In this document: positions 10,812-33,179 of the stretch, one piece after another
Numbering within the stretch: the stretch's first letter is position 1
Layout of the letters: each line of letters begins with the position of its first letter
Source: an uncultured Pedosphaera sp.
Lineage (GTDB): Bacteria > Verrucomicrobiota > Verrucomicrobiia > Limisphaerales > Pedosphaeraceae
Length of the DNA: 64,000 nucleotides
Direction of reading: 5' to 3'
NCBI GenBank assembly: GCA_903930565.1
Contig: CAIYZC010000357.1
Coordinates: 4,728-68,727 of the forward strand
Translations under genes and position numbers: made by a program
The notes under the pieces: model-generated
What the model saw: the letters and a program-made list of their open reading frames with translations, nothing else
Told to the model about the DNA's origin: nothing
Databases searched by the model: none

Positions 10812-11232
10812 CCTCGCTCTGTCGAATGCTGGGCGCGACCAAGGTGGCGTGCCGCGCTCTCGAAGATTCAGTATCAGTGCTCGCCGCAGCGGCGCTTGGG
10901 CTTGACCAATCCGGTTACAGTTCGGCTCCGTCGCCACCGCGGCGCCTCCCGGCGCAAACTTCCTTCGGATAATCAAGGAATCAGTTGCCATGCAACGGCC
11001 TCCCCGCTCAGTTCCCTGGGTGCGGCCCCACGGTCGTTTTCCAAGCGCCGCAGACGACTCGTCACGATGTCCTGTCATGGTTTGCCGTTTCGGCGATCGA
11101 GAGCGCCGTCCTGGAGGTGTGCCCCTTGAGTCTCAGCCTGTCCGGCCAATAAATTGGGGCGACGCAACCGCTTGATTGGCAAGGCTTTACGGAGGTTGAT
11201 CAAAGGAATCAAAAATAATTTGAGAAACCCTG

Positions 11233-11261
11233 TTGACAGGTTCTGCCATCGGTGAGAATAT
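11233..11261 (+). promoter_or_regulatory. Sigma70-like promoter (TTGACA - 17 nt - GAATAT, TG at -15/-14), with an AT-rich UP-like tract upstream
   Basis: TTGACA at 11233-11238 and gaatat at 11256-11261, preceded by 'aaaaataattt'. The entire module is repeated almost verbatim at 24374-24450. Confidence 0.55.
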
Positions 11262-11278
11262 ACGACCAAGTTGATCGT
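11262..11278 (+). promoter_or_regulatory. Near-palindrome ACGACCAAGTTGATCGT overlapping -10/+1 (candidate repressor operator)
   Basis: 14 of 17 positions are self-complementary. An identical 17-mer occurs at 24427-24443 in the same position relative to a TTGACA box. A perfect relative occurs at 11705-11723. Confidence 0.5.
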
Positions 11279-12154
11279 GTATGGCGGGTTCGAATTCACC
11301 GAAAACGAACTGCTAATCGCGGGTCAACCTTCACCGGAGCGGGTTCGGGAGAGCGGGCGGTCACATCACCGCGCTCGATCGACAGAGGCCGGTGAACCAG
11401 CCGGTGGCAGTCGCCGCGAGTTTCGATTCTCGACTCGACGGTGTTTCGTGCCGGGCGGCTTCGGCTGCCTTGTAGCCGGAGAGAATCGTGCTCTACCCGT
11501 CCCCGGGAAGCCCACAGAGCTCACCAGTCCACTGGAAGTTTCGATACGTCACAACCGTACTTGATAACATGACTGGAATATCACTTTTAACCATTTCCGG
11601 CTTGGCCGGTATCAGAGCCGCCCTGATGGCGCGCGGCTGGGGCCAATCCGTTCGGGCTGCCCTTGGCCCGCGGGGCGCAACCCGTCTTTGTGGGTGCCTA
11701 GAAACACGACCTAATAGGTCGTGTATCGCGGGCGGCTACGACCCCAAGTGTGCAGTGCCGCCGCCGGGTCGGTTGCGGCCGATGACGATTGCCAGGCGGC
11801 GGATGGTCCGCGAACCGCGCTCCCTCGAAGTCGTCATTTTGGAGGCATAGCCGCCCGGAGTTGCGGTTGGCTTTTGCAACCGCACCAGCCGGCGGAATCG
11901 CGCGCCACCCGACCCCGGCAAACTCACCGGGCTCTCCAGTCCACTGGAGCTTCCCAGTGCTTATAACCGCGAGTGTAACCATGTTTGGCAAATTAATATT
12001 GACGTCTTTTGACTTTGGCGGCGGCCGGACCGCGAGCTGGTCCGGCAGCCACCGCGAACCACTCCCCGCGGGTCGCAACCGACGGAGCGCAGGCCTTTCC
12101 GCCGCCGCCGGTTGCGGTTCCTCTGAATCTGCAATCTAAAACTGTAAACTGCTT
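11268..12154 (+). promoter_or_regulatory. About 0.9 kb structured 5' leader made of two diverged tandem units (about 11262-11575 and 11705-11985) upstream of the pseudopilin gene
   Basis: Each unit begins with ACGACC-N5-GRTCGTGTAT(G/C)GCGGG. Each ends with CTCACC..CCAGTCCACTGGA(A/G)..TT..ATAACC(G)..TAAC(C)ATG. Many GC-rich hairpins lie between (for example gcggttg/caaccgc at 11863-11882 and ccggacc/ggtccgg at 12024-12044). No convincing ORF. Confidence 0.45.
11705..11723 (+). promoter_or_regulatory. Perfect palindrome CACGACCTA-a-TAGGTCGTG (second operator-like site, or an RNA hairpin)
   Basis: 9-bp arms are perfectly complementary. Shares the ACGACC/GGTCGT half-sites and the downstream GTGTATcGCGGG with the site at 11262. 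The centres are about 441 bp apart. Confidence 0.5.
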
Positions 12155-13087
12155 ATGAACACGAACCAGAAACCATCCGAATTGGGAGCCGCCCAATCCC
12201 TTACTCCTGTCGCCCTTGCCTTGCCGCGCTTCCCCTTGCCCGCCCGGCCCCGGCGGCGGGCCGCGGCCGGGGCTTTCACGCTCATCGAATTACTGGTGGT
12301 CATCGCCATCATCGCCATCCTGGCGGCCATGCTCCTGCCGGCCCTGGCCAAGGCGAAGGACAAGGCGAAGGCAATCAATTGCGCGTCCAATCTGCACCAG
12401 TGGGGCGTGGTCTGGAGCACCTATACCTCCGACAATGCGGATTCATTCCCGCCGGGGACCAACCCCGACGGCAGCCCCGACCCCAACGCCCGTTCCGCTT
12501 GGTATGACTCGCTGCAGCACGATACCGCCACCTTCCAGAAAATTGTGCTTTGCCCGTCGGCGATGAATACCAACTACAACCTCTCCACCGCCGCGGGCCA
12601 GGCATCGTTTGGGGGGCTGGACACCGCCTTCCGTTTCCCCACGGCGGCGGGAAACGCGGATCTATACGAGGACGGCCAACCCGGGGGATACGGTGCGAAT
12701 CTATGGATATACAACACCCAAGTGGACATCCAAAACCGGGTGGCGGCCAACCATTGGCGCAAAACCTCGGGCACGCCGTTGCCCAGCCAAACGCCGTTGA
12801 TGGCGGACAGCATGTGGCGCGGCGGCGGACCGTGGTACGGCCCGGACGCGCGCACCTATCAGGCCGCGACCGGCCCCGGAGTGTCCTCGGGGGACGCCTC
12901 CCGTGAGATGGAACATTTCTGCGTCCCCCGTCATGGCTCGGGCAAGCGGACCGAACTGGTGTTCTTTGACGGTTCCGCCAGCACTCTCCGAGTGCAGAAC
13001 TTGTGGTCGCTCAAGTGGCACCAGAATTGGGATCAAAGCTATCAGGCGAACAATTACGCCCTGCCCACGTGGGTCCGGGCGCAGTGA
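12155..13087 (+). CDS. Prepilin-type N-terminal cleavage/methylation domain protein (type II pseudopilin-like, DUF1559/H-X9-DG-like)
   Basis: '[42 protein letters not shown]' is the class III signal/pseudopilin motif. The C-terminal '[19 protein letters not shown]' resembles the H-X9-DG tail with slightly longer spacing. The 38-aa leader is long, so the true start may be an internal non-ATG codon. Confidence 0.8.
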
Positions 13088-22946: not shown

Positions 22947-23786
22947 ATGCTCAATTCTGACCAAACCAAGTTCGTGGCGATCAAACGTGGCTTCCTGACC
23001 CTGCTCGCCCTGGGCACGCTGCTCTCGGCGCGCGCCGAGGACGCCAGCGGCCTGTGGAAATGGAGCACCCCCAACCGCAGTGGCGGGCCGGACCGGGTGG
23101 TGAATTTGAAACTCGCCATCGAAGGCCGCACCCTCACGGGCAAAATCTATACCCCCAATCGCACCAACGACACCTTCGCCGAGGTGGAGATCAAAGACGG
23201 AACGATCCAGGACGGGGAATTGTCCTTCACGGTTTCCCGTGGCGGCCGCGGGGGCGGCGCCGGGATTGTGACCAAATACACCGGCAAATTGAAGGGGGAC
23301 AAAATCGAGGGCAAGATTGAAACCCCTTCGCGCGATGGCGAGGTCCGCGCGCTGGATTGGAAAGCCGAGCGCAACACCACGGGGCAATTGATTGCCGGGG
23401 AAAAAATCGTCCTCAAGCCCGGCTATGACGAAAACGGAAACAAGATTGTCAATGAGACCCACTACAAAGAGGTTTCGGTGGATGAAGCGGAAAAGTTTCT
23501 CGCCGGCCATCCCGAGGCGATCATCTTGGACGCCCGCTCCCCGGAGGAGTTCGCCGCCGGCCATTTGCCGAACGCGAAGAACTACAACTTGACCGACAAA
23601 GACACCTACAAAAGCTTGCTGGCCGGCTTGGACAAATCCAAATGGTACGTGGTCCACAGCGCGGTGGGACATTATCGCACCGTGCGGGCCTTGGAGTATT
23701 TTGAGGCCAACGGCTTCGAGCACGCCATTGCGATCGACGGCGGCTACGCCGCTTGGGCGAAAGCCGGCAAACCCACCGTGAAATGA
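22947..23786 (+). CDS. Secreted two-domain protein with C-terminal rhodanese-like domain lacking the catalytic Cys
   Basis: Signal-like N-terminus. The C-terminal 'IILDARSPEEFAAGHLPNAKNY...WYVVHSAVGHYRTVRALEYFEANGFEHAIAIDGGYAAW' matches the rhodanese fold, and the active-site loop (HSAVGHYR) contains no Cys. Confidence 0.7.
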   Translation: MLNSDQTKFVAIKRGFLTLLALGTLLSARAEDASGLWKWSTPNRSGGPDRVVNLKLAIEGRTLTGKIYTPNRTNDTFAEVEIKDGTIQDGELSFTVSRGGRGGGAGIVTKYTGKLKGDKIEGKIETPSRDGEVRALDWKAERNTTGQLIAGEKIVLKPGYDENGNKIVNETHYKEVSVDEAEKFLAGHPEAIILDARSPEEFAAGHLPNAKNYNLTDKDTYKSLLAGLDKSKWYVVHSAVGHYRTVRALEYFEANGFEHAIAIDGGYAAWAKAGKPTVK

Positions 23787-23823: not shown

Positions 23824-24228
23824 ATGAAGCATTCCGTTCGAGTAATTCTTGTTACGGGAGCCGCCCTGCTGGGCGCGAGCCTGCCGGCTCGCGCCCGGCC
23901 CGGCACTCCGGTGGACGATCCCGTCGCGGGCAAAGCCAAATACTCCATTGCGCAGGTGATGAAGGCCCTGCACAAGGGGGAGGACTCCATCGGCAAGCGG
24001 GTCGGTCGCGGGCAGGGGACCAAGGAGGACTTTGCCAAGCTGGTGGAGTACTACGAATCCCTCCCCCTCAACGAACCGCCGGAGGGCGGTTCGGCAAGCT
24101 GGAAGAAAAAGTCGACCGCCCTGCTCGTCTCCGCGAAGGCACTGAATGAAGGCCGGGAAGGCGCCTTGGCCGCTTACAAGCAAGCGGTGGACTGCAAGGC
24201 TTGCCATGAAGTGCATCGGCCGGAGTGA
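23824..24228 (+). CDS. Small periplasmic c-type cytochrome (class II / cytochrome c'-like: single CxxCH near the C-terminus)
   Basis: Signal peptide 'MKHSVRVILVTGAALLGASLPARA'. About 110-aa helical-looking mature part. 'CKACH' lies 8 residues from the C-terminus. Confidence 0.6.
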   Translation: MKHSVRVILVTGAALLGASLPARARPGTPVDDPVAGKAKYSIAQVMKALHKGEDSIGKRVGRGQGTKEDFAKLVEYYESLPLNEPPEGGSASWKKKSTALLVSAKALNEGREGALAAYKQAVDCKACHEVHRPE

Positions 24229-24397
24229 TCCTGGTGCTGTCGCCCTTGCCGTCCCGCACAAATTTTTATCGGCGGCCGCCGACAAGTTTGAAGCCAGGCC
24301 GCCGGGTGGATGAAAAAGCCAATCGTGATAACCGGTTCATCATCAAGGGTTTAGAAACATTTTTGAAGGTTCGCTAAAATAATTTTACGAATCCTTG

Positions 24398-24426
24398 TTG
24401 ACAGGGGAGGAGTTCACGATCAATAT
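24398..24426 (+). promoter_or_regulatory. Sigma70-like promoter (TTGACA - 17 nt - CAATAT), second copy of the 11233 module
   Basis: TTGACA at 24398-24403 and caatat at 24421-24426, preceded by 'aaaataattt', as at 11210-11220. Confidence 0.55.
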
Positions 24427-24443
24427 ACGACCAAGTTGATCGT
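24427..24443 (+). promoter_or_regulatory. Near-palindrome ACGACCAAGTTGATCGT (identical to 11262-11278)
   Basis: Exact 17-nt identity, with conserved flanks: 'aatatACGACCAAGTTGATCGTGaATGGCGG' versus 'aatatACGACCAAGTTGATCGTGtATGGCGG'. Confidence 0.5.
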
Positions 24444-24828
24444 GAATGGCGGCTGCTAAATCCGCAAATATCAGCCGCGGAGGTCGGATCGATCTTCCGC
24501 GGTGTCGGAACGGGCTTCGCTGATCGTCGGAGTGGCAGGCAAGGCTGGAGTTCTGCTGGTTAACCCCGAAACCCGAAACCCGAAAGGGTCCAAGGAAGTG
24601 TTTGGAACGTGGGCAGGAATCGATCCGGGATTTTAGCCGGGCTCCCGACGTCCGCGAAGCATTCGTCCAGGTAAAACGCATCCGTAACGAAGATGGCCGC
24701 CTTGAATTTCACCAAGCGTGGGGAAAGTGCCAGTCCGGCCGCCGGTCCGGGTCCGGAAGGGCTGCGGCCAAATTGAATCGATACCACGACTCCCCGGGCT
24801 GGCGCATCCGGCCCTCGGTAATCCCCCT
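24433..24828 (+). promoter_or_regulatory. About 0.4 kb structured leader upstream of the M14-like/cysK/encapsulin genes, related at both ends to the 11.3-12.0 kb leader units
   Basis: The 5' end is identical to unit A. The 3' part, 'tcaccaag...gccagtcc(ggccgccggtccgggtcc)ggaagg...tcgatacc', parallels 'ctcaccagtccactggaagtttcgatacg' of unit A, with an expanded hairpin. Confidence 0.4.
24565..24585 (+). repeat. Heptanucleotide tandem repeat (CCCGAAA)x3 followed by GGG
   Basis: Read directly: 'cccgaaacccgaaacccgaaaggg'. The last unit can form a CCC-GAAA-GGG tetraloop hairpin. Confidence 0.9.
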
Positions 24829-25662
24829 ATGAATCCCTCCCCAACTATTATGCGCGCACTCGTTCCCAAGCGGCGTACCGTGCTGCCCACCGAGAGCCCG
24901 GCGGAGCACCGCCGAGCGGATCCTCCGATTGAGTTCCTCCAGCCGCTGCTGGATTTGGCCCGAGTCTCGGATTCCGTCATCGCGGGAACCGTCGGGAAAT
25001 TTACGGCGGGGGGCGGAACTTTTCGCATTCCCCGCTTCATTTTCATGGGCCCGACGGGCGGCGGCCAACCAATTCGGATTGGTTTGTTCGCCTGCTTCCA
25101 TGGTGACGAATGGGAGGGGGCGGAGGCGTTGGTCGAGCTGTTTCTGCATTTCGAGCGCCATCCCGAATTGGTGAAGGACTTTCACCTTTACGCCTATCCT
25201 GTTTGCAATCCCTTTGGCTTCGCGGCGAGCGCCCGCCGCAACGCGAATGGCTGCGACTTGGCTGCCGAGCTCTGGCGCGGTTCCTCCCAAGTGGAGGCTT
25301 ATTATGTGGAGCGGGAAATGGGCGTGCATCAGTTTCACGGCGTGATTTCCTTACACACGGCCAAGAATTCCAGCCGGTTCTCCGCCGCGTGCCCCAGCGC
25401 CCTTCTCCAAGAGGCGGTGGCCGGGCCCGCCCTCTTGGCCACCCGGCGGTTCAGCCCGGCCGGTGCCGATAGCGCCGTCGGCCTGGCCGTGCCCAACGGC
25501 TTTCTGACCGCGACCGACGAACTCCGTCCCGCTCCCTTTGAAATCAACCTGGCCATCCCCCGCCTGCTGCCCGGTCCCTTCTGGGTTCAGGGAACGGTGG
25601 CCGCCTTGGCCTCGATCCTGCACTCCTACCGCAACCTGATGGCCTTTCGCCCAAATATATGA
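24829..25662 (+). CDS. M14 / succinylglutamate-desuccinylase-aspartoacylase-like zinc hydrolase family protein (divergent)
   Basis: 'GLFACFHGDEWEG' is an HxxE zinc motif. 'YPVCNPFGF' is the NP.G motif. 'ISLHTA' is a candidate third zinc ligand. The usual 'DLNR' reads 'DLAAE'. The start is taken at ATG 24829, since the ORF upstream of it lies in the leader. Confidence 0.55.
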   Translation: MNPSPTIMRALVPKRRTVLPTESPAEHRRADPPIEFLQPLLDLARVSDSVIAGTVGKFTAGGGTFRIPRFIFMGPTGGGQPIRIGLFACFHGDEWEGAEALVELFLHFERHPELVKDFHLYAYPVCNPFGFAASARRNANGCDLAAELWRGSSQVEAYYVEREMGVHQFHGVISLHTAKNSSRFSAACPSALLQEAVAGPALLATRRFSPAGADSAVGLAVPNGFLTATDELRPAPFEINLAIPRLLPGPFWVQGTVAALASILHSYRNLMAFRPNI

Positions 25663-25843
25663 TTACATTCTGGAATGTGGCCGTCCCCGGTCTTCCCGGC
25701 CGTTTGGCGGTCGGCCCCGCGACTAACGATGTTTGTGGGTCTGGGTGCTTATTCCAAACTTGCCCGGGCGCGGCCCTTGCGTTATTCGTCAAAAAAGACG
25801 GCGGCATTCCAGCCTGTTCTTGGACGCAACTTATCTAAATTCT

Positions 25844-26827
25844 ATGGGAAACATCTACCAAAACATCACCGAAACCATTGGGCGCACTCCCTTGGTTAAA
25901 CTCAACCGGGTGGCGGCCGGCGTGCCCGCCACCATCCTGCTCAAGTGCGAGTTTTTTAATCCCTTGGGCAGTGTCAAGGACCGCATCGGTCTGGCCCTGA
26001 TCGAGGACGCGGAGCGGCGGGGCGTGCTCAAGCCGGAAACCGTGATCATTGAACCCACCAGCGGCAACACCGGCATCGCCCTTGCTTTTGTCGCCGCCGC
26101 GAAGGGATATAAGATCATCCTGACCATGCCCGAAACGATGTCGTTGGAGCGGCGCACGCTCCTGGCGTTGCTGGGGGCGAAACTCGTGCTCACGCCCGGT
26201 AAAGAGGGGATGAAGGGGGCGATCGCCCGCGCCGAGTTGTTGGCGAAGGAAACGCCCAATTCCTGGATTCCCCAGCAGTTTGAGAACCCGGCGAATCCGG
26301 CCGTCCACCAACGGACTACCGCGGAGGAGATCTGGGCGGACACGGATGGCCGGGTGGACATTTTGGTGGCGGCGGTGGGCACGGGCGGCACGATCACCGG
26401 TTGTGTGGAGGTAATCAAACCGCGCAAGCCCACGTTCGTGGCGATCGCCGTCGAGCCGAAGGATTCGCCGGTGATTTCGCAGACCCTGGCGGGGCAAACA
26501 CCGGTGCCGGGGCCGCACAAAATTCAAGGCACCGGGGCGGGATTTGTGCCCAAAAACCTGCACCTGAAGGACAGCCTGGGCCATTCGCAGATTACGGAGT
26601 GCGTGCAGGTGACCAATGACGAAGCCATCGGGATGGCGCGACGGCTGGCCAAGGAAGAAGGGTTGTTGGTGGGAATTTCTACCGGCGCGAATGTGGTGGC
26701 GGCGCTGCAAGTGGCGGCGCGACCGGAGAACCATGGGAAGATTATCGTTACCGTTGCTTGCTCCACTGGCGAGCGATATCTCAGCACTGCCTTGGCCGAC
26801 GAAGCCCGGGCGGCCGTCGGGGGCTGA
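25844..26827 (+). CDS. cysK: Cysteine synthase A (O-acetylserine sulfhydrylase)
   Basis: '[12 protein letters not shown]', the PLP-lysine motif '[11 protein letters not shown]', and '[11 protein letters not shown]' with 'GTGGTITG'. Full-length, about 327 aa. Confidence 0.9.
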
Positions 26828-26871
26828 GCGACGTCGAGTCGCGGGCGGGCGCGGAAGGTGCACGAAGTTGT

Positions 26872-26899
26872 TTGACAACCACCGCGATTACCTTAGCCT
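26872..26899 (+). promoter_or_regulatory. Candidate promoter (TTGACA - 16 nt - TAGCCT) for the encapsulin operon
   Basis: Consensus -35 hexamer at 26872-26877, but only a weak TAnnnT -10. It would leave a leader of about 290 nt. Confidence 0.3.
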
Positions 26900-27195
26900 G
26901 ACTCCACCGGCCCGGCATTCTGAACCCATCAATTGCCGCGACCGGATCCAAACCAACCGACAGTCAGTGAAGTCGGGCCGACCGGACCACCGGAAGCCTC
27001 ATGAAAATGCAGTTTTATTCATGCCGGCCGCCTCTCAGGTTCGCGGTGGAGCCCAAGTAAGTTCCGCTCGTTTTGCGATCCCGGAATTCTCCCGTCAGGG
27101 ATTTCCGCGCCGCCGGCATTTCACCCTCCCCTCCGCATCACGGGGTGGCACATCCCGGGTAGTCAATCCGGCAACCGCCGCCCCCACCCACGACC

Positions 27196-28167
27196 ATGCC
27201 GAATAATCCAGATTCCAAGATTCCCGGACTCAGCCTCAGCGCCACCGCCGCGCGCAACCTCGCCACCGCCACCGTAACGGTGCCGCAGATGGCGGAAATT
27301 ACCCCGCGTTGGCTTCACCGTCTTCTGCCTTGGGTGGATGTGGACGGCGGGGTCTACCGGGTCAACCGCATCGCGAAAGCGGCGGCCGGCAAACCCGCCA
27401 ATGAGTTCGGGGAAACAAAAGTGGATCTCGTCACCGTGGACGGCGGCGAACCCAAATTGCCCACCACTTTCGTCAATTACGAGGAGGACCCCCGCGAGTA
27501 CCATCTGAGCACCATCCAGACGGTGCTGCGCACCCACACGCGCGTCACCGACCTGTACAGCAACCAGATCGACCAACTGCGCGAACAAATCCGCCTGACG
27601 GTCGAAGCGGTGAAGGAACGCGAGGAATGGGAGCTGATCAACCATGCGGCCTTCGGCCTGCTGCATGAAGTGGCGCCTTCGCAAAGAATCCATACCCGCA
27701 AAGGCGCGCCTTCGCCCGATGATTTGGATGAACTGCTCACCTTGGTTTGGAAGAGGCCCGCGTTCTTCCTGGCCCATCCCCGGGCGATCGCTGCTTTCGG
27801 CCGCGAATGCACCCGCCGGGGCGTGCCGCCGCCCACCGTGCAGCTGTTTGGCTCCCCGTTCCTGACCTGGCGGGGTTTGCCGCTCATCCCCAGCAACAAA
27901 CTCGAGTTGAATGCCAAGACCGGCGCGACCAGCATTCTGTTGCTGCGTGTGGGGGAGGCGGAGCAAGGCGTCGTGGGCCTGCAAAAAACCGGGGTCACCG
28001 GGGAAGTCGAACCGGGCCTCTCCGTCCGCTACATGGGCACCAACGAGAATTCCATCGCCTCCCACTTGATCACGCGCTACTTCTCCACCAGCGTGCTCAC
28101 CACGGATGCCATCGCCCGCCTCGACAACGTCCTCGTTGACCAATATCATGAGTATCAGTGGAAGTGA
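27196..28167 (+). CDS. Family 2A encapsulin nanocompartment shell protein (HK97-fold, no cNMP-binding domain)
   Basis: Motifs 'ITPRWLHRLLPWV', 'GVYRVNR', 'DPREYHL', 'GAPSPDDLDELL', 'AAFGRECTRRGVPPP', 'LTWRGLPLIPS', 'QGVVGL', 'GLSVRY' and 'DQYHEYQ' match my recollection of SrpI-type Family 2A shells. The gene is directly followed by an N-terminally extended cysteine desulfurase. Confidence 0.85.
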   Translation: MPNNPDSKIPGLSLSATAARNLATATVTVPQMAEITPRWLHRLLPWVDVDGGVYRVNRIAKAAAGKPANEFGETKVDLVTVDGGEPKLPTTFVNYEEDPREYHLSTIQTVLRTHTRVTDLYSNQIDQLREQIRLTVEAVKEREEWELINHAAFGLLHEVAPSQRIHTRKGAPSPDDLDELLTLVWKRPAFFLAHPRAIAAFGRECTRRGVPPPTVQLFGSPFLTWRGLPLIPSNKLELNAKTGATSILLLRVGEAEQGVVGLQKTGVTGEVEPGLSVRYMGTNENSIASHLITRYFSTSVLTTDAIARLDNVLVDQYHEYQWK

Positions 28168-29863
28168 CGCCGGCGCCGGCGCAACTCCGGCGGCGGAGGG
28201 CGACCCCAATGATCTGATTGCCCGGCTGGTGGCGGAGGAATACTCCAAATCAATCCGGCCCGGGGCTCCGACTCCCGGCTGGCCGGTCGTGGCCGACGCT
28301 TTGCGGTCGGCCGGCGCGCCGCGGGTCGATCTGCCCTTGCCCGCGACCGCAGCCGCCCCTTTGCCTCCGGTGCACCCCAGCTCGCAACCGCCCGCGCCCG
28401 CGCTGGCGCCCGCGAAATCGCCCGCCTCGGGCGCGCATGAACCCGAGTCGGCCGACAGCTATGCGTTCGGCGAGCCGCGTTGCAACGGTCGGTTGGCCAC
28501 CCACCCGGCCGGGGCGCGGCCCGCCGGGGCGCACCTCCGGTCGGACCCCGACGCCGCGCCGGAGTATTATTTTCTGCGCGCCGGCCAATCAAAGGGGCGG
28601 AAGGTGTCGGCGGGGGCGCCATACGCCGCCACCGCGACCCCGGTTCCCAGTTTCGATCCGGAAGGCGTGCGGCGGGATTTCCCCGCCCTGCACCAACGGG
28701 TCAACGGGAAGCCTTTGGTTTGGCTCGACAACGCGGCCACCACGCACAAACCCCAAGCGGTGTTGGACGCCACCGCCGAGTTTTACGGGCGCGACAATTC
28801 GAACATCCACCGGGCCGCGCACACGCCGGCGGCGCGCGCCAGTGAATTGTTTGAGGCGGGCCGCGAAAAAGTGCGGCGCTTTCTGGGCGCCGCCGACGCC
28901 AAGGAAATCGTCTTCGTCCGCGGGACTACCGAAGCGATCAATTTGGTCGCCCAATCCTATGGCCGCCAACATGTCGGCCCGGGCGACGAAATCATTGTCA
29001 CCGAGTTGGAACACCATGCGAACATCGTGCCCTGGCAGTTGCTGGCCGGGCAGACGGGGGCCGCGTTGCGTGTGGTGCCCATCAACGACCGGGGCGAATT
29101 GATCTTGGAGGAATACGCGAAACTGCTCGGGCCGCGAACCAAACTGGTCGCGGTGGCGCACGTTTCCAACTCCCTCGGCACGATCAATCCCGTGGAGCAA
29201 ATCATCGCGCTGGCGCACGCCCGCGGCGTGCCGGTGCTCGTGGATGGCGCGCAATCCACCCCCCACCTGCCGGTGAATGTGACCGCTTTGGACGCCGATT
29301 TCTATGTGTTCTCCGGGCACAAAGTTTTCGGCCCGACCGGTGTCGGCGCCCTTTACGGCAAAGCCGCCTGGCTCGAAGCGATGCCACCCTGGCAGGGCGG
29401 CGGGCACATGATCAAGGATGTGCGGTTTGAAAAAACGGTTTACCAGTCGGCCCCGGAGAAGTTCGAAGCCGGCACGCCCGACATCGCCGGCGTGGTGGGC
29501 CTGGGGGCGGCGATCGACTACCTGTTCAAGTTGGGCCTGCCCGCGATCGCGGCCTACGAGCATTCCTTGCTGGAATATGCCACGCACGCGTTGGCCGGAG
29601 TTCCCGGCTTGCGCCCGATCGGCACGGCCGCGAACAAGGCGAGCGTGTTGTCCTTCGTCATTCCGGGCATCCCCAACGAGCGGATCGCGCGGCACTTGGA
29701 CCGCCAAGGGATCGCCGTGCGCGCGGGGCATCATTGCGCCCAGCCCGCCCAGCGGCATTTCGGATTGGAAAGCACGGTCCGCCCCTCGCTGGCTTTTTAC
29801 AACACCCGCGCCGAAATTGACCAACTCGTGCGCGCGCTTCGGCAGCTCCGGCGCGATTTTTGA
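28148..29863 (+). CDS. Encapsulin cargo cysteine desulfurase (SufS/CsdA-like, group II) with an N-terminal extension of about 185 aa, Pro/Ala-rich
   Basis: Catalytic core motifs: 'LDNAATTHKPQAVLDA', 'FSGHKVFGPTGVGALYG' (PLP Lys) and 'RAGHHCAQP' (catalytic Cys). The N-terminal low-complexity region contains 'LIARLVAEEY', resembling the LARLANEFF cargo-loading motif. ATG 28148 overlaps the shell gene by 20 nt (alternative ATG at 28106). Confidence 0.85.
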   Translation: MSISGSDAGAGATPAAEGDPNDLIARLVAEEYSKSIRPGAPTPGWPVVADALRSAGAPRVDLPLPATAAAPLPPVHPSSQPPAPALAPAKSPASGAHEPESADSYAFGEPRCNGRLATHPAGARPAGAHLRSDPDAAPEYYFLRAGQSKGRKVSAGAPYAATATPVPSFDPEGVRRDFPALHQRVNGKPLVWLDNAATTHKPQAVLDATAEFYGRDNSNIHRAAHTPAARASELFEAGREKVRRFLGAADAKEIVFVRGTTEAINLVAQSYGRQHVGPGDEIIVTELEHHANIVPWQLLAGQTGAALRVVPINDRGELILEEYAKLLGPRTKLVAVAHVSNSLGTINPVEQIIALAHARGVPVLVDGAQSTPHLPVNVTALDADFYVFSGHKVFGPTGVGALYGKAAWLEAMPPWQGGGHMIKDVRFEKTVYQSAPEKFEAGTPDIAGVVGLGAAIDYLFKLGLPAIAAYEHSLLEYATHALAGVPGLRPIGTAANKASVLSFVIPGIPNERIARHLDRQGIAVRAGHHCAQPAQRHFGLESTVRPSLAFYNTRAEIDQLVRALRQLRRDF

Positions 29864-29874
29864 ACCCCCTGCGA

Positions 29875-30861
29875 ATGAGTGCCTTACCGATTGAAGCGGG
29901 GACGCCCGCCCTGCCGAGGGAAACCCGCCGGGACGCCGTTTGGATGCGCGAGGTCTTGGAGGAAACGGTCCCGGAGTTGCTCCACTCCTATCAGCGCGCC
30001 GGCGGATTGAACCATCGCGAATCGCACAACCTGCCCTCCAAGCGGGCGGTGGGGCAGATTTGCGAGGGCTTGCTGCAAATCCTCTTCCCGGGCTTTCACG
30101 ATGATGACGTGGTGCCCCACGGCTCCTTGGAAGAATTCACCACACGCCGGCTCGCGACAGTCGTCCAAGCCTTGATTGACCAGGTGCGCAAGAGCGTGCG
30201 CGTGGGCGATCCTCATAAGCCGACCGGCAAGACGCCGCCCATCATTCGCAAGTTCTGCCGCGCTTTGCCCGAAATCCGCGAATTGCTGCGCTGGGACGTC
30301 GAAGCGGCGTTTGACGGTGACCCCGCGGCGTTGCTTCGCGAAGAAATCATCCTCTCCTATCCCTTCATTGAGGCCGTGGCCATCCAGCGTCTGGCCCACC
30401 GCCTGCATGTGTTGGGCGCGCCCGTGCTGCCGCGCATGATGACGGAGTGGGCGCACAACCGCACGGGGATCGACATTCATCCCGGCGCGCTCCTTGGGAC
30501 GCATTTTTTTATCGACCACGGAACCGGCATCGTCATCGGCGAAACCTGTCGTATCGGAAACCACGTCAAAATCTACCACGGCGTCACCTTGGGCGCCCGG
30601 AGCTTTGTCAAAGACCAGTCGGGCCACATCATCAAGGGGGGCAAGCGGCATCCGGACGTGGGCGATCATGTGACCATTTATCCGAACTCCACCATCCTGG
30701 GCGGCAAGACCTTCATCGGCTCCAATTCCACCATTGGCGCGAACGTGTTCCTCATGCACAGCATCCCGGCCAATTCGCTGGTGGTTTACGAAGAGAAACA
30801 ATTGACCATTCGGGAAAAGCCGGAGCCAAAAGCGCCCGCCGACCGGGATTCCTCGATGTGA
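29875..30861 (+). CDS. cysE: Serine O-acetyltransferase
   Basis: Left-handed beta-helix hexapeptide core 'GIDIHPGALLGTHFFIDHGTGIVIGETCRIGNHVKIYHGVTLGA'. Long helical N-terminal domain. Start is ATG 29875, or TTG 29860 overlapping the upstream stop. Confidence 0.85.
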   Translation: MSALPIEAGTPALPRETRRDAVWMREVLEETVPELLHSYQRAGGLNHRESHNLPSKRAVGQICEGLLQILFPGFHDDDVVPHGSLEEFTTRRLATVVQALIDQVRKSVRVGDPHKPTGKTPPIIRKFCRALPEIRELLRWDVEAAFDGDPAALLREEIILSYPFIEAVAIQRLAHRLHVLGAPVLPRMMTEWAHNRTGIDIHPGALLGTHFFIDHGTGIVIGETCRIGNHVKIYHGVTLGARSFVKDQSGHIIKGGKRHPDVGDHVTIYPNSTILGGKTFIGSNSTIGANVFLMHSIPANSLVVYEEKQLTIREKPEPKAPADRDSSM

Positions 30862-31181
30862 TTGACGAGGACATTGCACCGAGTGGGCCTTGGCCCCCGA
30901 CTCCGGACGGCCTGGCCGGGCTGCCCGATCAGTACCCCCCGCCAATAAGGCTGATTCAAACGTCGTCCGCACTTTGGTCGCAGATTCCTATGTTTGTGAT
31001 ATTGGCCGGATGTCTCGGTTTATAGGTTCAAAGTGAAGCAATAAACCACACGTATCTCACCGCCGGTCAATCAGGCAAACGATCCGGTACAGCAAAAACT
31101 GTGTTTAAATTAGCTTGCTTTTTTTAAGTTGATACTACACTATCTCTATCGAGTTAGTGTGCTTGCCGATTGTTTTAAGTC

Positions 31182-31406
31182 ATGAATGCCCATTCCACGA
31201 TTTGCCCGAAGGATTTGGAACCAAACCCGATCCCCTTCCAGCGGGCTTTGAGCGAAAACCAGGCCGCTGGCTTTTTCAGCCTGGCCGTGGCGTGGGAAAT
31301 GAATCCTGCGCTCCGTGATCGGAGCCCGGAGGAGATTCTGGATCTGTTCCACCGGCTGGCCTCTGAAGAGCTCGCCCAAGAATGGGCTTCCGGCCGGGGC
31401 GGTTAA
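31182..31406 (+). CDS. Hypothetical small acidic protein (74 aa)
   Basis: Isolated ORF directly after an AT-rich tract. I recognise no motif, so coding status is uncertain. Confidence 0.3.
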   Translation: MNAHSTICPKDLEPNPIPFQRALSENQAAGFFSLAVAWEMNPALRDRSPEEILDLFHRLASEELAQEWASGRGG

Positions 31407-31694
31407 CGTCTGCTCCAGTAGCGAAACTGCTATCCCCGCTCCCGGCCAACACCCTTTGCTTCCATTGTCAGCAGACTCACCGAATCACGGGAAGTCGCGC
31501 GCCGGTTCGCCGTGAAGACGATTCCCTTTTGCGGTCCTCCAAGCTCAAGGCGTTCAGGGTGCCGGCCGCCATACCCCAGCTTTCCGACCCTACCATGGGA
31601 GGTCAAAACCGGTTCGCTCCGCTCCGCGCCGCCGTTTGGGGGCGTGGGAGTGGTGCGACCCAAACTCATCCTAATCTTAAGCCTAATACAAATA

Positions 31695-33179
31695 ATGAAT
31701 CCAAAATCGTCCTTTCAAGCCATCGCCATGGTCGGAGCCTTGGGGCTTGCGGCCCAGGCCAACGCCGACGTCGTCACCGACTGGAATCTGATCACGGTCA
31801 ATGCCACCAAAACCGCCGGGCAGAACAGCAATCTGGGGTCGCGCACGGATGCCATCGAGGCCATCGCGGTTTACGACGCGGTCAATTCCATCCGCCAATT
31901 CGGGACGCCCTACAATTACTACGTGCCCGGCAACGGCTCCGCCCAAGCCGCCGCCGCGCAGGCCGCGCACGACGTGCTGGTGAATTATTTCCCGTCCCAA
32001 GCGGCGGCTTTCGACACCGCCCTGAGCAACAGCCTGTCGGCCATCACCGACGGACCCGTCGGCAACGGACCCGCGGTGGGCGCGGCGGCGGCGGCGAGCA
32101 TCATCGCGTTGCGGTCAAACGATGGCTCGACTCCGAACGTCACTTATGGGGGGCCGACGACGATCGTTCCCGGGGCCTACCAGCTCACGCCGAACGTTCC
32201 CGCAGTAACGAGTCCTCCTTACACCTTCAATGCGGGCATCAACGAACAATGGGGATCGGTGCGGCCGTTTACCTTGGCGGCGACCAACCAGTTCCGACCC
32301 GGGCCTCCGCCGGCGTTGAACAGCCTGCAATACAGCAATGATTTTGCCCAAGTTCAGGCGCTCGGTTCGTTGACGGGCGGCACGCGCACCCCCGATCAGA
32401 CGCGTGTCGCGCAATTTTACAAGCAGGACGCGGAGTTGACGGTCAACGAAGCCGCCCGCGAACTCGCCCTCGCCCAAGGGCTGCCTCTGGAGCAGTCCGC
32501 CCTGCTGTTTGTGCTCGTGGACATCGCCGTGGCGGATGCGCGCATCGCCGTTTGGGATGCGAAATACACCTATCTCTTTTGGCGTCCCATAACCGCCCTG
32601 AACGCCAATGCCGATGGCACCGTGACCAACAATTATTCCGCCTGGCAGCCGCTCATTGTCACGCCCAACCACCCGGAATATCCCAGTGGCCACGGCGGCA
32701 CGGTGAACGCCGGTTTCGAAGTCTTGAAGGCTTTTTTCGGTGACCAAAACACCCTGCTGCTCCACACGACCACGGCGGGTGAACCGCCGCGGCTGGTGCA
32801 ATCGTTGACCAAGGGGGAGACCGAAAATGTGCTCGCCCGCATCTATGACGGAGTGCACTTCTGGTTCTCGGACACTGCCGGCCAGACCATTGGCAACCAA
32901 GTCGCCGCCTACGTGCTTTCGCATGGTCCTTCGCTCATCGTCAATTCGACCAACACGGCCAATTCGCAACTGGCGATTAATTCGTATCCCGGCATCAGCA
33001 TTAGCGGCAATCCCGGCCAGTCGTACCGTATCGATTATTCCACCACCTTGGCGCCCACGAACTGGATCACGCTCAAATACGTCACCCTGCCCACGTCCGC
33101 GCCGTATCTCGTTCAGGATCATACGCCTTACTCGGCCGGCGCCAAGCGCTTCTACCGCACCGTGGCGATTTCGAACTGA
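31695..33179 (+). CDS. Secreted PAP2-superfamily / vanadium-haloperoxidase-like protein with a C-terminal beta-sandwich tail
   Basis: Signal peptide 'MNPKSSFQAIAMVGALGLAAQANA'. PAP2 signature in order: 'KYTYLFWRP', 'YPSGHG', 'ARIYDGVHFWFSD'. ATG 31695 is chosen. Confidence 0.75.
   Translation: MNPKSSFQAIAMVGALGLAAQANADVVTDWNLITVNATKTAGQNSNLGSRTDAIEAIAVYDAVNSIRQFGTPYNYYVPGNGSAQAAAAQAAHDVLVNYFPSQAAAFDTALSNSLSAITDGPVGNGPAVGAAAAASIIALRSNDGSTPNVTYGGPTTIVPGAYQLTPNVPAVTSPPYTFNAGINEQWGSVRPFTLAATNQFRPGPPPALNSLQYSNDFAQVQALGSLTGGTRTPDQTRVAQFYKQDAELTVNEAARELALAQGLPLEQSALLFVLVDIAVADARIAVWDAKYTYLFWRPITALNANADGTVTNNYSAWQPLIVTPNHPEYPSGHGGTVNAGFEVLKAFFGDQNTLLLHTTTAGEPPRLVQSLTKGETENVLARIYDGVHFWFSDTAGQTIGNQVAAYVLSHGPSLIVNSTNTANSQLAINSYPGISISGNPGQSYRIDYSTTLAPTNWITLKYVTLPTSAPYLVQDHTPYSAGAKRFYRTVAISN

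Follow-up and report, generated by a model that had tools for sequence, protein, structure and literature searches.

The DNA analysed here, called the window throughout, is a stretch of 64,000 nucleotides (64 kb) of contig CAIYZC010000357.1 from an uncultured Pedosphaera sp. of the Verrucomicrobiota, and all positions below are window coordinates. On its forward strand, between 25844 and 30861, lie four genes, for a cysteine synthase (CysK), an encapsulin shell protein, a cysteine desulfurase and a serine O-acetyltransferase (SAT; CysE), exactly where an earlier note drawn from the sequence alone had put them. Taken as a whole, the locus is very probably a Family 2A (SrpI-type) desulfurase encapsulin system, and nothing that turned up in the analysis contradicts this family assignment. 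The rest of the window encodes housekeeping proteins (NusA, IF-2, NadA, HtrA, signal peptidase) and families typical of the Planctomycetes-Verrucomicrobia-Chlamydiae (PVC) group (PSCyt1/2, PSD1, DUF1501); the locus therefore sits in a chromosomal region of a verrucomicrobial genome. The part of the finding that appears new is a hairpin in the leader of the shell gene that is shared with sulfate-uptake genes. The features discussed (ORF, open reading frame; aa, amino acids) are:

25844..26827, + strand: cysK, O-acetylserine sulfhydrylase (cysteine synthase A), 327 aa (TIGR01139, PF00291)
26872..26899, + strand: putative promoter-like site of the shell operon (read from the sequence; conserved in relatives)
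26974..27000, + strand: leader hairpin (covariance model, pair counts)
27001..27060, + strand: small upstream ORF, MKMQFYSCRPPLRFAVEPK* (read from the sequence)
27196..28167, + strand: Family 2A encapsulin shell, SrpI-like, 323 aa (PF19307, NF041162, PDB, AlphaFold2/Foldseek)
28148..28672, + strand: N-terminal cargo-loading domain of the desulfurase, ~175 aa (composition and an alignment of 72 sequences)
28673..29863, + strand: catalytic domain of the class II (SufS/CsdA-type) cysteine desulfurase (PF00266, TIGR01979, PDB 8kg1)
29875..30861, + strand: long-form serine O-acetyltransferase (CysE-like), 328 aa (full-length alignment to solved SATs)
11516..11542, + strand: second copy of the leader hairpin, CUCACCAGUCCACUGGAAGUU (covariance model R1)

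The shell protein matches the Pfam family of SrpI-like Type 2A encapsulin shells (PF19307) with 360.5 bits (E=4.4e-108, cut-off 22.8) and spans positions 1-295 of the 295-position NCBIfam model encap_f2a (NF041162) with 463.9 bits against a cut-off of 380, which bears out the SrpI-type shell named in the earlier note. Among solved structures, it aligns with SrpI itself (6x8m, E=4.7e-114, ~61% identity over 301 aligned residues), the Acinetobacter baumannii shell (8t6r, E=2.9e-111, ~59% identity) and the mycobacterial Mmp1 shells (8wol and 9ksl, E=1e-102 to 1e-105); the SrpI alignment covers residues 9-322, so that the N-terminal arm of the HK97 fold is included. Family 2B shells in the PDB give weaker matches, confined to the regions outside their cyclic-nucleotide-binding (cNMP) insert, and the 2B model NF041163 likewise aligns only over its positions 198-449 and the N-terminus, again outside the insert. 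Pfam finds no cNMP domain in the 323 residues and the site holds an 11-residue insertion alone; because the cyclic-nucleotide-binding insertion domain is absent, we class the shell as 2A and not 2B. The insertion (AAGKPANEFGE, residues ~63-73, 27382-27414) distinguishes the protein from SrpI and from the A. baumannii and mycobacterial shells; it is common to the verrucomicrobial clade, it was modelled with low confidence and it coincides with the break in the 2B model alignment. In Family 2B shells, it is the E-loop that holds the cNMP domain.

Structure prediction leads to the same family. An AlphaFold model built from 34 sequences, all 81-89% identical, reached a predicted local distance difference test score (pLDDT) of only 36.8 and was not used; a rerun with more distant representatives reached a pLDDT of 80.1 and a predicted template modelling (TM) score of 0.72 and was taken to Foldseek. 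Against the PDB, the top matches are the 2A shells 8t6r, 6x8m and 8wol (TM 0.80-0.92), followed by Family 2B shells and then by HK97 and other phage capsids. The best structural match is 8t6r (E=1.2e-43); 6x8m aligns with TM 0.80/0.92, and HK97 Head II (2ft1) follows at E=3.6e-10. The HK97-type fold on which the earlier note had made its shell claim depend was recovered by this route, as was the significant similarity to Family 2A encapsulins by the profile searches.

The desulfurase gene starts inside the shell gene. Its ATG at 28148 falls within the last shell codons, giving a 20-nt overlap, as previously noted, and a protein of 571 aa. Relatives keep the overlapping ATG, and their frame is closed ahead of it; for this reason we favour it over the ATG at 28106 chosen by automatic and public gene calls (585 aa, 62-nt overlap), which the relatives leave unsupported. 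The catalytic region occupies the C-terminal ~400 residues (PF00266, 476.7 bits) and passes the TIGR01979 sufS model with 538 bits (cut-off 475); its best match is 8kg1, a solved desulfurase of 426 residues (E=1.8e-167). The lysine that binds pyridoxal phosphate (K392, in SGHK) and the catalytic cysteine (C530, in GHHCAQP) are both present, in the numbering of the 571-aa protein.

Ahead of this SufS-like domain is the long disordered N-terminal extension that the earlier note had described: ~175 low-complexity residues (Ala 21%, Pro 16%, Ser 9%, Gly 9%) with no sequence match in the PDB, which is what disorder would lead one to expect. Across 72 aligned homologues it is poorly conserved save for four short islands, DLIARLVAEEYS (residues 22-33), PPVHP (72-76), SYAFGEPRC (104-112) and EYYFLR (138-143). 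Two motifs, LARLANEFFS and AASPYYFLDG, have been described in SrpI-associated desulfurases (Nichols et al., 2021, PMC8049743), and DLIARLVAEEYS and EYYFLR are their counterparts. In Acinetobacter (PMC10836720) and mycobacteria (PMC11659603), the cargo carries several short shell-binding motifs on flexible linkers; the four-island domain, as read from its sequence, matches this multi-motif picture. The last residue of one island, SYAFGEPRC (28457-28483), is a cysteine present in many, not all, homologues, and it is the sole cysteine outside the active site; a persulfide-relay role for it would be pure speculation.

The two flanking genes fit the cysteine-synthesis pair proposed in the earlier note. 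The upstream protein passes the TIGR01139 equivalog model (431 bits, cut-off 350.95) and matches PF00291 with 249.6 bits, as an O-acetylserine sulfhydrylase should. A gap of 368 nt lies between cysK and the shell gene, and the position of cysK relative to the shell varies among relatives; cysK is probably a transcription unit apart from the shell operon. The downstream gene starts 11 nt past the desulfurase stop (an alternative TTG at 29860 would give 333 aa). Its hexapeptide-repeat product stays below the NCBIfam cut-offs (cysE, 147.8 bits against 210.65; EpsC, 140.2 against 150), although it aligns over its full length with solved serine O-acetyltransferases (6lcn, E=7.3e-78, residues 23-314; 3f1x, E=6e-66), and we accept it, on these alignments, as a long-form SAT homologue.

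How ordinary is such a locus? A protein search with the shell returned at least 8000 proteins at E<=1e-20. The best 120 of these are 81-100% identical to it; they include one identical shell, from NCBI/ENA metagenome assemblies, and several that NCBI already names 'family 2A encapsulin nanocompartment shell protein [Verrucomicrobiota bacterium]'. A genome scan taking one genome per species gave 80 related loci, mostly from Verrucomicrobiota (Limisphaerales/subdivision 3, Chthoniobacterales, Verrucomicrobiaceae, Methylacidiphilales), the others including Nitrospira and some Family 2B-type loci of Xanthobacter and Actinomycetota. In all 80, across several phyla, the shell gene is followed by a desulfurase gene. 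A CysE homologue (66-78% identity) adjoins the shell-cargo pair in most verrucomicrobial loci, CysK is often nearby, and the exact order CysK, shell, desulfurase, CysE recurs at L005, L028 and L037. The verrucomicrobial and Nitrospira homologues (e.g. L001-L058, proteins P0002-P0120) have shells 72-89% identical to the window's, start the desulfurase at the same overlapping codon and share its loading-domain motifs. Their accessory genes are in varying order: CysE lies upstream or downstream, CysK and the sulfate-binding-protein gene (sbp) may lie downstream, and many carry a CRSGQR-type rhodanese gene after the cargo gene, which the window lacks.

Two side observations concern this set. In L059-L073 and L077-L080, longer Family 2B-type shells (~460-480 aa) precede the same kind of desulfurase; these loci come from Methylacidiphilales, Xanthobacter, Acetobacter and Actinomycetota, L080 (Planctomycetota) has tandem shell genes, and all are consistent with published 2B-desulfurase and two-component systems. 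In addition, L001, L004, L011, L024, L032 and others are 'binchicken' records of metagenome-assembled genomes (MAGs) that hold clearly verrucomicrobial-type loci under the titles 'uncultured Bifidobacteriaceae', 'Bifidobacterium sp.', 'Enterobacteriaceae' or 'Solirubrobacteraceae'; their taxonomy is probably mislabelled.

The literature points the same way. Family 2A desulfurase systems were found in 13, 12 and 11 phyla by the three main studies (among them PMC8049743 and PMC10836720), and four operon types are recognised (Benisch et al., 2024, PMC10836720). Among the neighbours of 2A shell genes listed in supplementary file 2 of Nichols et al. (PMC8049743), Aminotran_5 stands at 94.9%, Hexapep at 56.2%, rhodanese at 48.7%, Hexapep-SATase at 23.3% and PALP at 22.5%, and SAT and rhodanese are the most enriched accessory genes (PMC10836720, PMC8049743). 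Since Nichols et al. had tabulated these neighbours, the CysE/CysK bracket is a known neighbourhood and not a new one. The earlier note knew of no characterised verrucomicrobial example, and our literature search likewise found no paper characterising one. The novelty it implied was nonetheless overstated: 11-13 phyla have been reported, the closest sequences are dozens of verrucomicrobial MAGs, some of them already named by NCBI, and the neighbours appear in the table just cited. The locus is a real yet ordinary new member of a known encapsulin family, in a phylum and with a CysK/CysE bracket that are both common in public genomes.

Three characterised systems help to place it. The Synechococcus elongatus PCC 7942 pair of SrpI and Synpcc7942_B2661 (6x8m/6x8t; PMC8049743) has a ~61% identical shell with, by fold match, the same T=1 2A architecture, and its cargo, like the window's, has a disordered N-terminal domain with LARLANEFFS, AASPYYFLDG or their equivalents. 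It differs in that the window shell has the 11-residue insertion near residues 63-73 and that the loading domain is ~175 aa in the window and ~225 aa in S. elongatus. The window locus, moreover, is chromosomal and verrucomicrobial, while the S. elongatus SrpI locus is on a plasmid, where srpG and srpH adjoin srpI. The A. baumannii system (118362; 8t6r; PMC10836720) combines a ~59% identical shell with a desulfurase and an L-serine O-acetyltransferase in one operon, as in the window; its order, however, is rhodanese, acetyltransferase, shell, desulfurase, whereas in the window the operon has no rhodanese, the acetyltransferase follows the cargo and CysK lies upstream. The Mycobacterium smegmatis Mmp1/encapsulated desulfurase system (8wol, 8won, 9ksl; Tang et al., 2024, PMC11659603) matches through its shell (E=1e-102 to 1e-105) and provides the best match for the catalytic domain of the cargo (8kg1), and its loading depends on several short motifs of the disordered N-terminus; it belongs to another phylum, its loading-domain motifs can only partly be aligned with the window's, and an alternative decameric assembly has been reported for the M. 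smegmatis system only (PMC11659603).

The region ahead of the shell gene is where the locus has more to say. A promoter-like site lies 45 nt past the cysK stop, with a -35 box TTGACA (26872-26877), a 16-nt spacer and a -10 box TAGCCT (26894-26899). A consensus scan missed it, its -10 box matching at 3/6 positions; over 25500-31600, that scan placed no terminator behind either cysK or cysE, and all its promoter-like matches were intragenic. An alignment of upstream regions nevertheless places TTGACA-N16/17-TAGCAT at the same position in relatives, whatever gene is upstream. Because this site is conserved regardless of the upstream gene, we think, from the sequences, that the shell-cargo-CysE unit is probably transcribed apart from cysK, from a sigma-70-like promoter of its own and with a leader of ~300 nt.

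About 95 nt past the promoter-like site, the leader contains a conserved hairpin followed by two AUGs. In relatives it reads GCUGA-CCGG-N4-CYGG-A-AGC, then CCC-AUG-AAAA...UUC-AUG; in the window, GGGCCGA-CCGG-ACCA-CCGG-A-AGCCUC-AUG...UUC-AUG (26974-27023). The first AUG opens the small upstream ORF (uORF, 27001-27060), 5 nt after the GGAAG of the hairpin; the second, at 27021, is 21 nt after the motif, the same spacing as that of start codons in the metagenome sample described below. This arrangement is kept in the shell leaders of relatives and in sbp leaders, where the second AUG is the sbp start codon itself. A cysteine-sensing leader peptide, suggested by a conserved ..YSCR.. in the uORF, was considered and rejected: the peptide as such is not conserved, stop codons interrupt it in L014 and L017, and in sbp leaders the same nucleotides encode ..IHAEL.. 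and the sbp start codon. It follows from the interrupted uORFs and from ..IHAEL.. that conservation here is at the level of nucleotides. The ORF opened by the second AUG (27021-27206, 61 codons) ends 11 nt inside the shell gene; this overlap with the shell start is not conserved, the equivalent ORFs of relatives stopping earlier.

Across instances, the hairpin follows the consensus GCUGACCGG-N4-CYGGARGY. RNAalifold and pair counting give an outer helix of 3-5 bp, an asymmetric internal loop (GA/A), an inner helix of 4 bp and a 4-nt loop; in the window, the outer helix P1 is GGGC/GCCU with a C-A mismatch, the internal loop is GA/A, the inner helix P2 is CCGG/CCGG (26982-26985 paired with 26990-26993) and the loop is ACCA. 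In 38 instances, 83.7% of the cells are paired, and covariation is 0.295 against 0.229+-0.022 in shuffles, a value that none of 500 shuffles reached (0/500); slid controls were far lower. The third inner pair (alignment columns 17/24) is G-C in 21 instances, G-U in 10 and A-U in 7, and is never unpaired. A covariance model (R1) built without any window sequence finds the window leader at 26968-27008 (32.2 bits, E=4.5e-8), together with a second copy at 11510-11550 (27.6 bits, E=1.4e-6) and a third, weaker one at 11924-11961 (13.6 bits, E=0.063). Both extra copies lie in a 1-kb intergenic stretch upstream of a gene for a prepilin-type N-methyl protein (12155-13087), and metagenome copies of the hairpin also directly precede N_methyl/DUF1559 proteins. 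On the 80 genome loci, R1 makes 58 matches, 54 of them on the shell strand, and 36 verrucomicrobial loci have one copy upstream of the shell gene; it finds no copy at L055 (Brevifollis gellanilyticus NBRC 108608) or L050 (Verrucomicrobium sp. BvORR106). Rfam 15 (4227 families) has no match at the hairpin, including in permissive scans of 24000-32000, of 11000-12250 and of 11 motif-bearing metagenome loci, and a full-text literature search for the motif string returned unrelated primer sequences only.

The genes that follow the hairpin tell what it may be for. Among the genome loci, the motif also stands before sbp-like genes (L017; L041, from Nitrospira), a CysK-like gene (L049), CysE (L017) and an AstE-like gene (L033). 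These loci had been chosen around encapsulins, and an independent metagenome sample was therefore collected with a sequence pattern that excludes most shell leaders. It yielded at least 120 contigs, many with two copies ~1 kb apart on one strand. An ORF of >=100 aa starts 15-35 nt past the motif in 58/79 cases, against 2/83 in the reverse-strand control, and the distance from motif to start codon has its mode at 21-27 nt. The 74 downstream ORFs include 17 sulfate ABC transporter substrate-binding proteins (TIGR00971) and 15 anion porins of the phosphate-selective type (Porin_O_P), with 3 cysteine synthases, 2 AstE/AspA-like proteins and 2 N-methyl/DUF1559 proteins. Leaders bearing the hairpin thus span Verrucomicrobiota, Nitrospirota and metagenome contigs. 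In porin-type metagenome leaders (L083, L090, L107, L108, L123, L128, L147, L148), another conserved hairpin, CCGGACCAGGGAAGGAUCCGG, stands ~60 nt ahead of the main motif; in some lineages the complete leader element may be larger.

That a small element in a leader could govern sulfur genes is not without parallel: the S-adenosylmethionine (SAM) riboswitch classes are cis elements in the 5' leaders of sulfur-assimilation genes, beside the ribosome-binding region. The hairpin resembles them in its place, in sulfur-gene 5' leaders near the ribosome-binding region; unlike them, it is far smaller (a single hairpin with an internal loop), has no Rfam match and stands on sulfate-uptake, porin and encapsulin genes where SAM riboswitches serve methionine and SAM genes. 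We hold it quite likely that the element marks a sulfur regulon that includes the encapsulin operon, and somewhat favour its acting as RNA, at translation initiation. That it binds a small molecule directly seems unlikely.

Put together, these elements suggest the following mechanism. Sixty copies of the 323-aa HK97-fold protein would self-assemble into a ~24-nm T=1 shell, as we infer from its 57-61% identity to three shells solved as T=1. Translation of the shell and the desulfurase may be coupled through the overlapping start codon, and a desulfurase dimer would be tethered inside by the short motifs of its disordered ~175-aa N-terminus. L-cysteine entering through the fivefold pores would be converted to L-alanine and persulfide sulfur, and the sulfur could build up in elemental or polysulfide form, shielded from cytosolic reductants of the size of glutathione, by analogy with A. 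baumannii and M. smegmatis. In A. baumannii, the encapsulated desulfurase stores elemental sulfur and the shell excludes glutathione (PMC10836720). SAT and CysK, whose functions are assigned by homology, could make the substrate locally, from serine through O-acetylserine to cysteine, and so be coupled to the compartment. Because the hairpin also precedes genes for the sulfate-binding protein, anion porins and CysK, the compartment is presumably regulated together with sulfate uptake and so switched on when sulfur is limiting; such induction of the window operon would agree with that measured in S. elongatus and A. baumannii, where sulfur starvation induces the system (A. baumannii: PMC10836720).

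Some weak points have to be set beside this picture. On the side of the compartment, the desulfurase reaches 783.9 bits with the dedicated family 2A cargo model (NF041166), below the cut-off of 800, with only model positions 151-623 aligned and the first ~95 cargo residues left out. The operon contains no dedicated rhodanese gene, and the only rhodanese-domain protein nearby (see below) has a signal peptide and is free of cysteine; sulfur remobilisation would therefore need a partner encoded elsewhere. On the side of the leader, single-sequence folding of the window leader is no better than shuffles (z = -1.5, -0.03), the hairpin is short (8-9 bp) and its instances, gathered by sequence patterns, look more conserved than they are. 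For this locus, moreover, it is from homology that we infer that the shell assembles and is loaded, that sulfur is deposited and that induction depends on sulfur.

Could the genes mean something else? The shell gene might encode the major capsid protein of what was once a prophage, or of a gene-transfer element, with sulfur genes beside it by coincidence, given its HK97 fold, the phage capsids found from rank 8 onward in the fold search and a weak match to the NCBIfam phage major capsid protein model NF045672 (E=0.0075, 15.8 bits). Yet in sequence and structure searches alike the best matches are without exception encapsulin shells (50-61% identity, whereas phage capsids reach 9-15%), the flanks hold CysK, CysE, DUF1501, PSD1 and housekeeping genes with no portal, terminase, protease or tail genes, and the shell-desulfurase adjacency holds in 80/80 loci of several phyla; the idea is effectively refuted and its probability negligible. 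That the desulfurase is an ordinary cytosolic SufS, working in iron-sulfur cluster or thio-cofactor synthesis next to a shell with another cargo or none, would explain why it passes the generic TIGR01979 model at 538 bits and misses the dedicated cargo model by 16 bits. It leaves unexplained a 175-aa disordered extension that housekeeping SufS proteins do not have, the presence in this extension of motifs shown to direct loading in S. elongatus (PMC8049743) and M. smegmatis (PMC11659603), and a start codon embedded in the shell gene with a conserved overlap; there are also no sufBCD, sufE or sufU genes nearby, and we regard this reading as very improbable. A subtler question is whether the compartment, if real, serves mainly for storage. 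Its main role could instead be removal of excess cysteine, protection of the desulfurase from oxidation or channelling of sulfur to a single favoured acceptor. Benisch et al. (2024, PMC10836720) mention detoxification of cysteine and a privileged pool of sulfur as possibilities, Tang et al. (PMC11659603) report that the shell protects the enzyme from oxidation, and CysE and CysK as neighbours would raise the local supply of cysteine. Against this, the motif common to sulfate-binding-protein and porin genes points to induction at sulfur scarcity, which fits detoxification poorly, and no rhodanese acceptor is encoded in the operon. We consider a main role other than storage unlikely, bearing in mind that such roles are compatible with storage and not mutually exclusive with it.

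The rival to an RNA element is a double-stranded DNA operator, bound just past the transcription start by a sulfur-responsive transcription factor. Dimeric regulators bind inverted repeats such as the core CCGG-N4-CCGG, the element is very short and its single-sequence folding not significant, and promoter-ribosome-binding-site cassettes spreading as units could explain the fixed spacing. Against an operator, the element is asymmetric (GA versus A), its flanks are not palindromic, and its outer helix varies between sites yet stays complementary, even within a single genome, L017 (AACU/AAGA, GAACU/AGUUC, GGUGCU/AGCUCC). Among the 38 instances, A-C never occurs at the inner pair, which is G-C, G-U or A-U; the spacing to the start codon is tight across unrelated gene families, and in the shell leader the element is ~95 nt downstream of the promoter-like site. 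It is for its strict orientation, its tight start-codon spacing and its variable yet complementary outer helix that we prefer an RNA-level mechanism to a DNA operator, which we judge rather unlikely. Acting as RNA and marking a sulfur regulon together would make the element an undescribed sulfur-responsive cis-regulatory RNA, either a small riboswitch or a translational-regulator site, a proposal to which we give about an even chance.

Two neighbouring genes upstream of cysK deserve mention. A rhodanese-domain protein is encoded 3.4 kb upstream (22947-23786; 279 aa, with a signal peptide and a C-terminal rhodanese domain); it has zero cysteines and, judged from its sequence, is therefore catalytically dead as a sulfurtransferase. 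Signal peptide and lack of cysteine make it implausible as the sulfur acceptor of the compartment. Its gene is paired with a DUF1501 gene, as in L036. Many relatives (L002, L009, L013, L024, L033 among them) have, immediately behind the cargo gene, a gene for a CRSGQR rhodanese with a membrane domain; the window protein shares no more than 32% identity with that rhodanese, and the window has no gene of this type. Closer to cysK, the ORF at 24718-25662 has weak AstE/AspA-like similarity (E=0.0069). A homologue adjoins CysK in at least ten relatives and the leader hairpin precedes the copy in L033; this ORF may belong to the same sulfur regulon.

The Verrucomicrobiota are an abundant phylum of soil and freshwater, and the locus, which adds little as an encapsulin, is further evidence of how widespread and well conserved the desulfurase compartment is among them. 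Shared with sulfate-binding-protein, porin and cysteine-synthase genes in at least two phyla, the ~30-nt element offers a testable handle on the link between compartment and sulfur supply, and it bears on why a compartment that stores sulfur is induced at sulfur scarcity. It is also a candidate for a new sulfur-responsive regulatory RNA in lineages without a known sulfur regulator. If this proves true, a regulon of the sulfate-binding protein, anion porins, CysK, AstE-like and DUF1559/N-methyl proteins and the desulfurase encapsulin operon would extend over Verrucomicrobiota, Nitrospirota and other soil and freshwater bacteria, and the encapsulin would be wired straight into the sulfate-uptake response, in a lineage without a characterised example.

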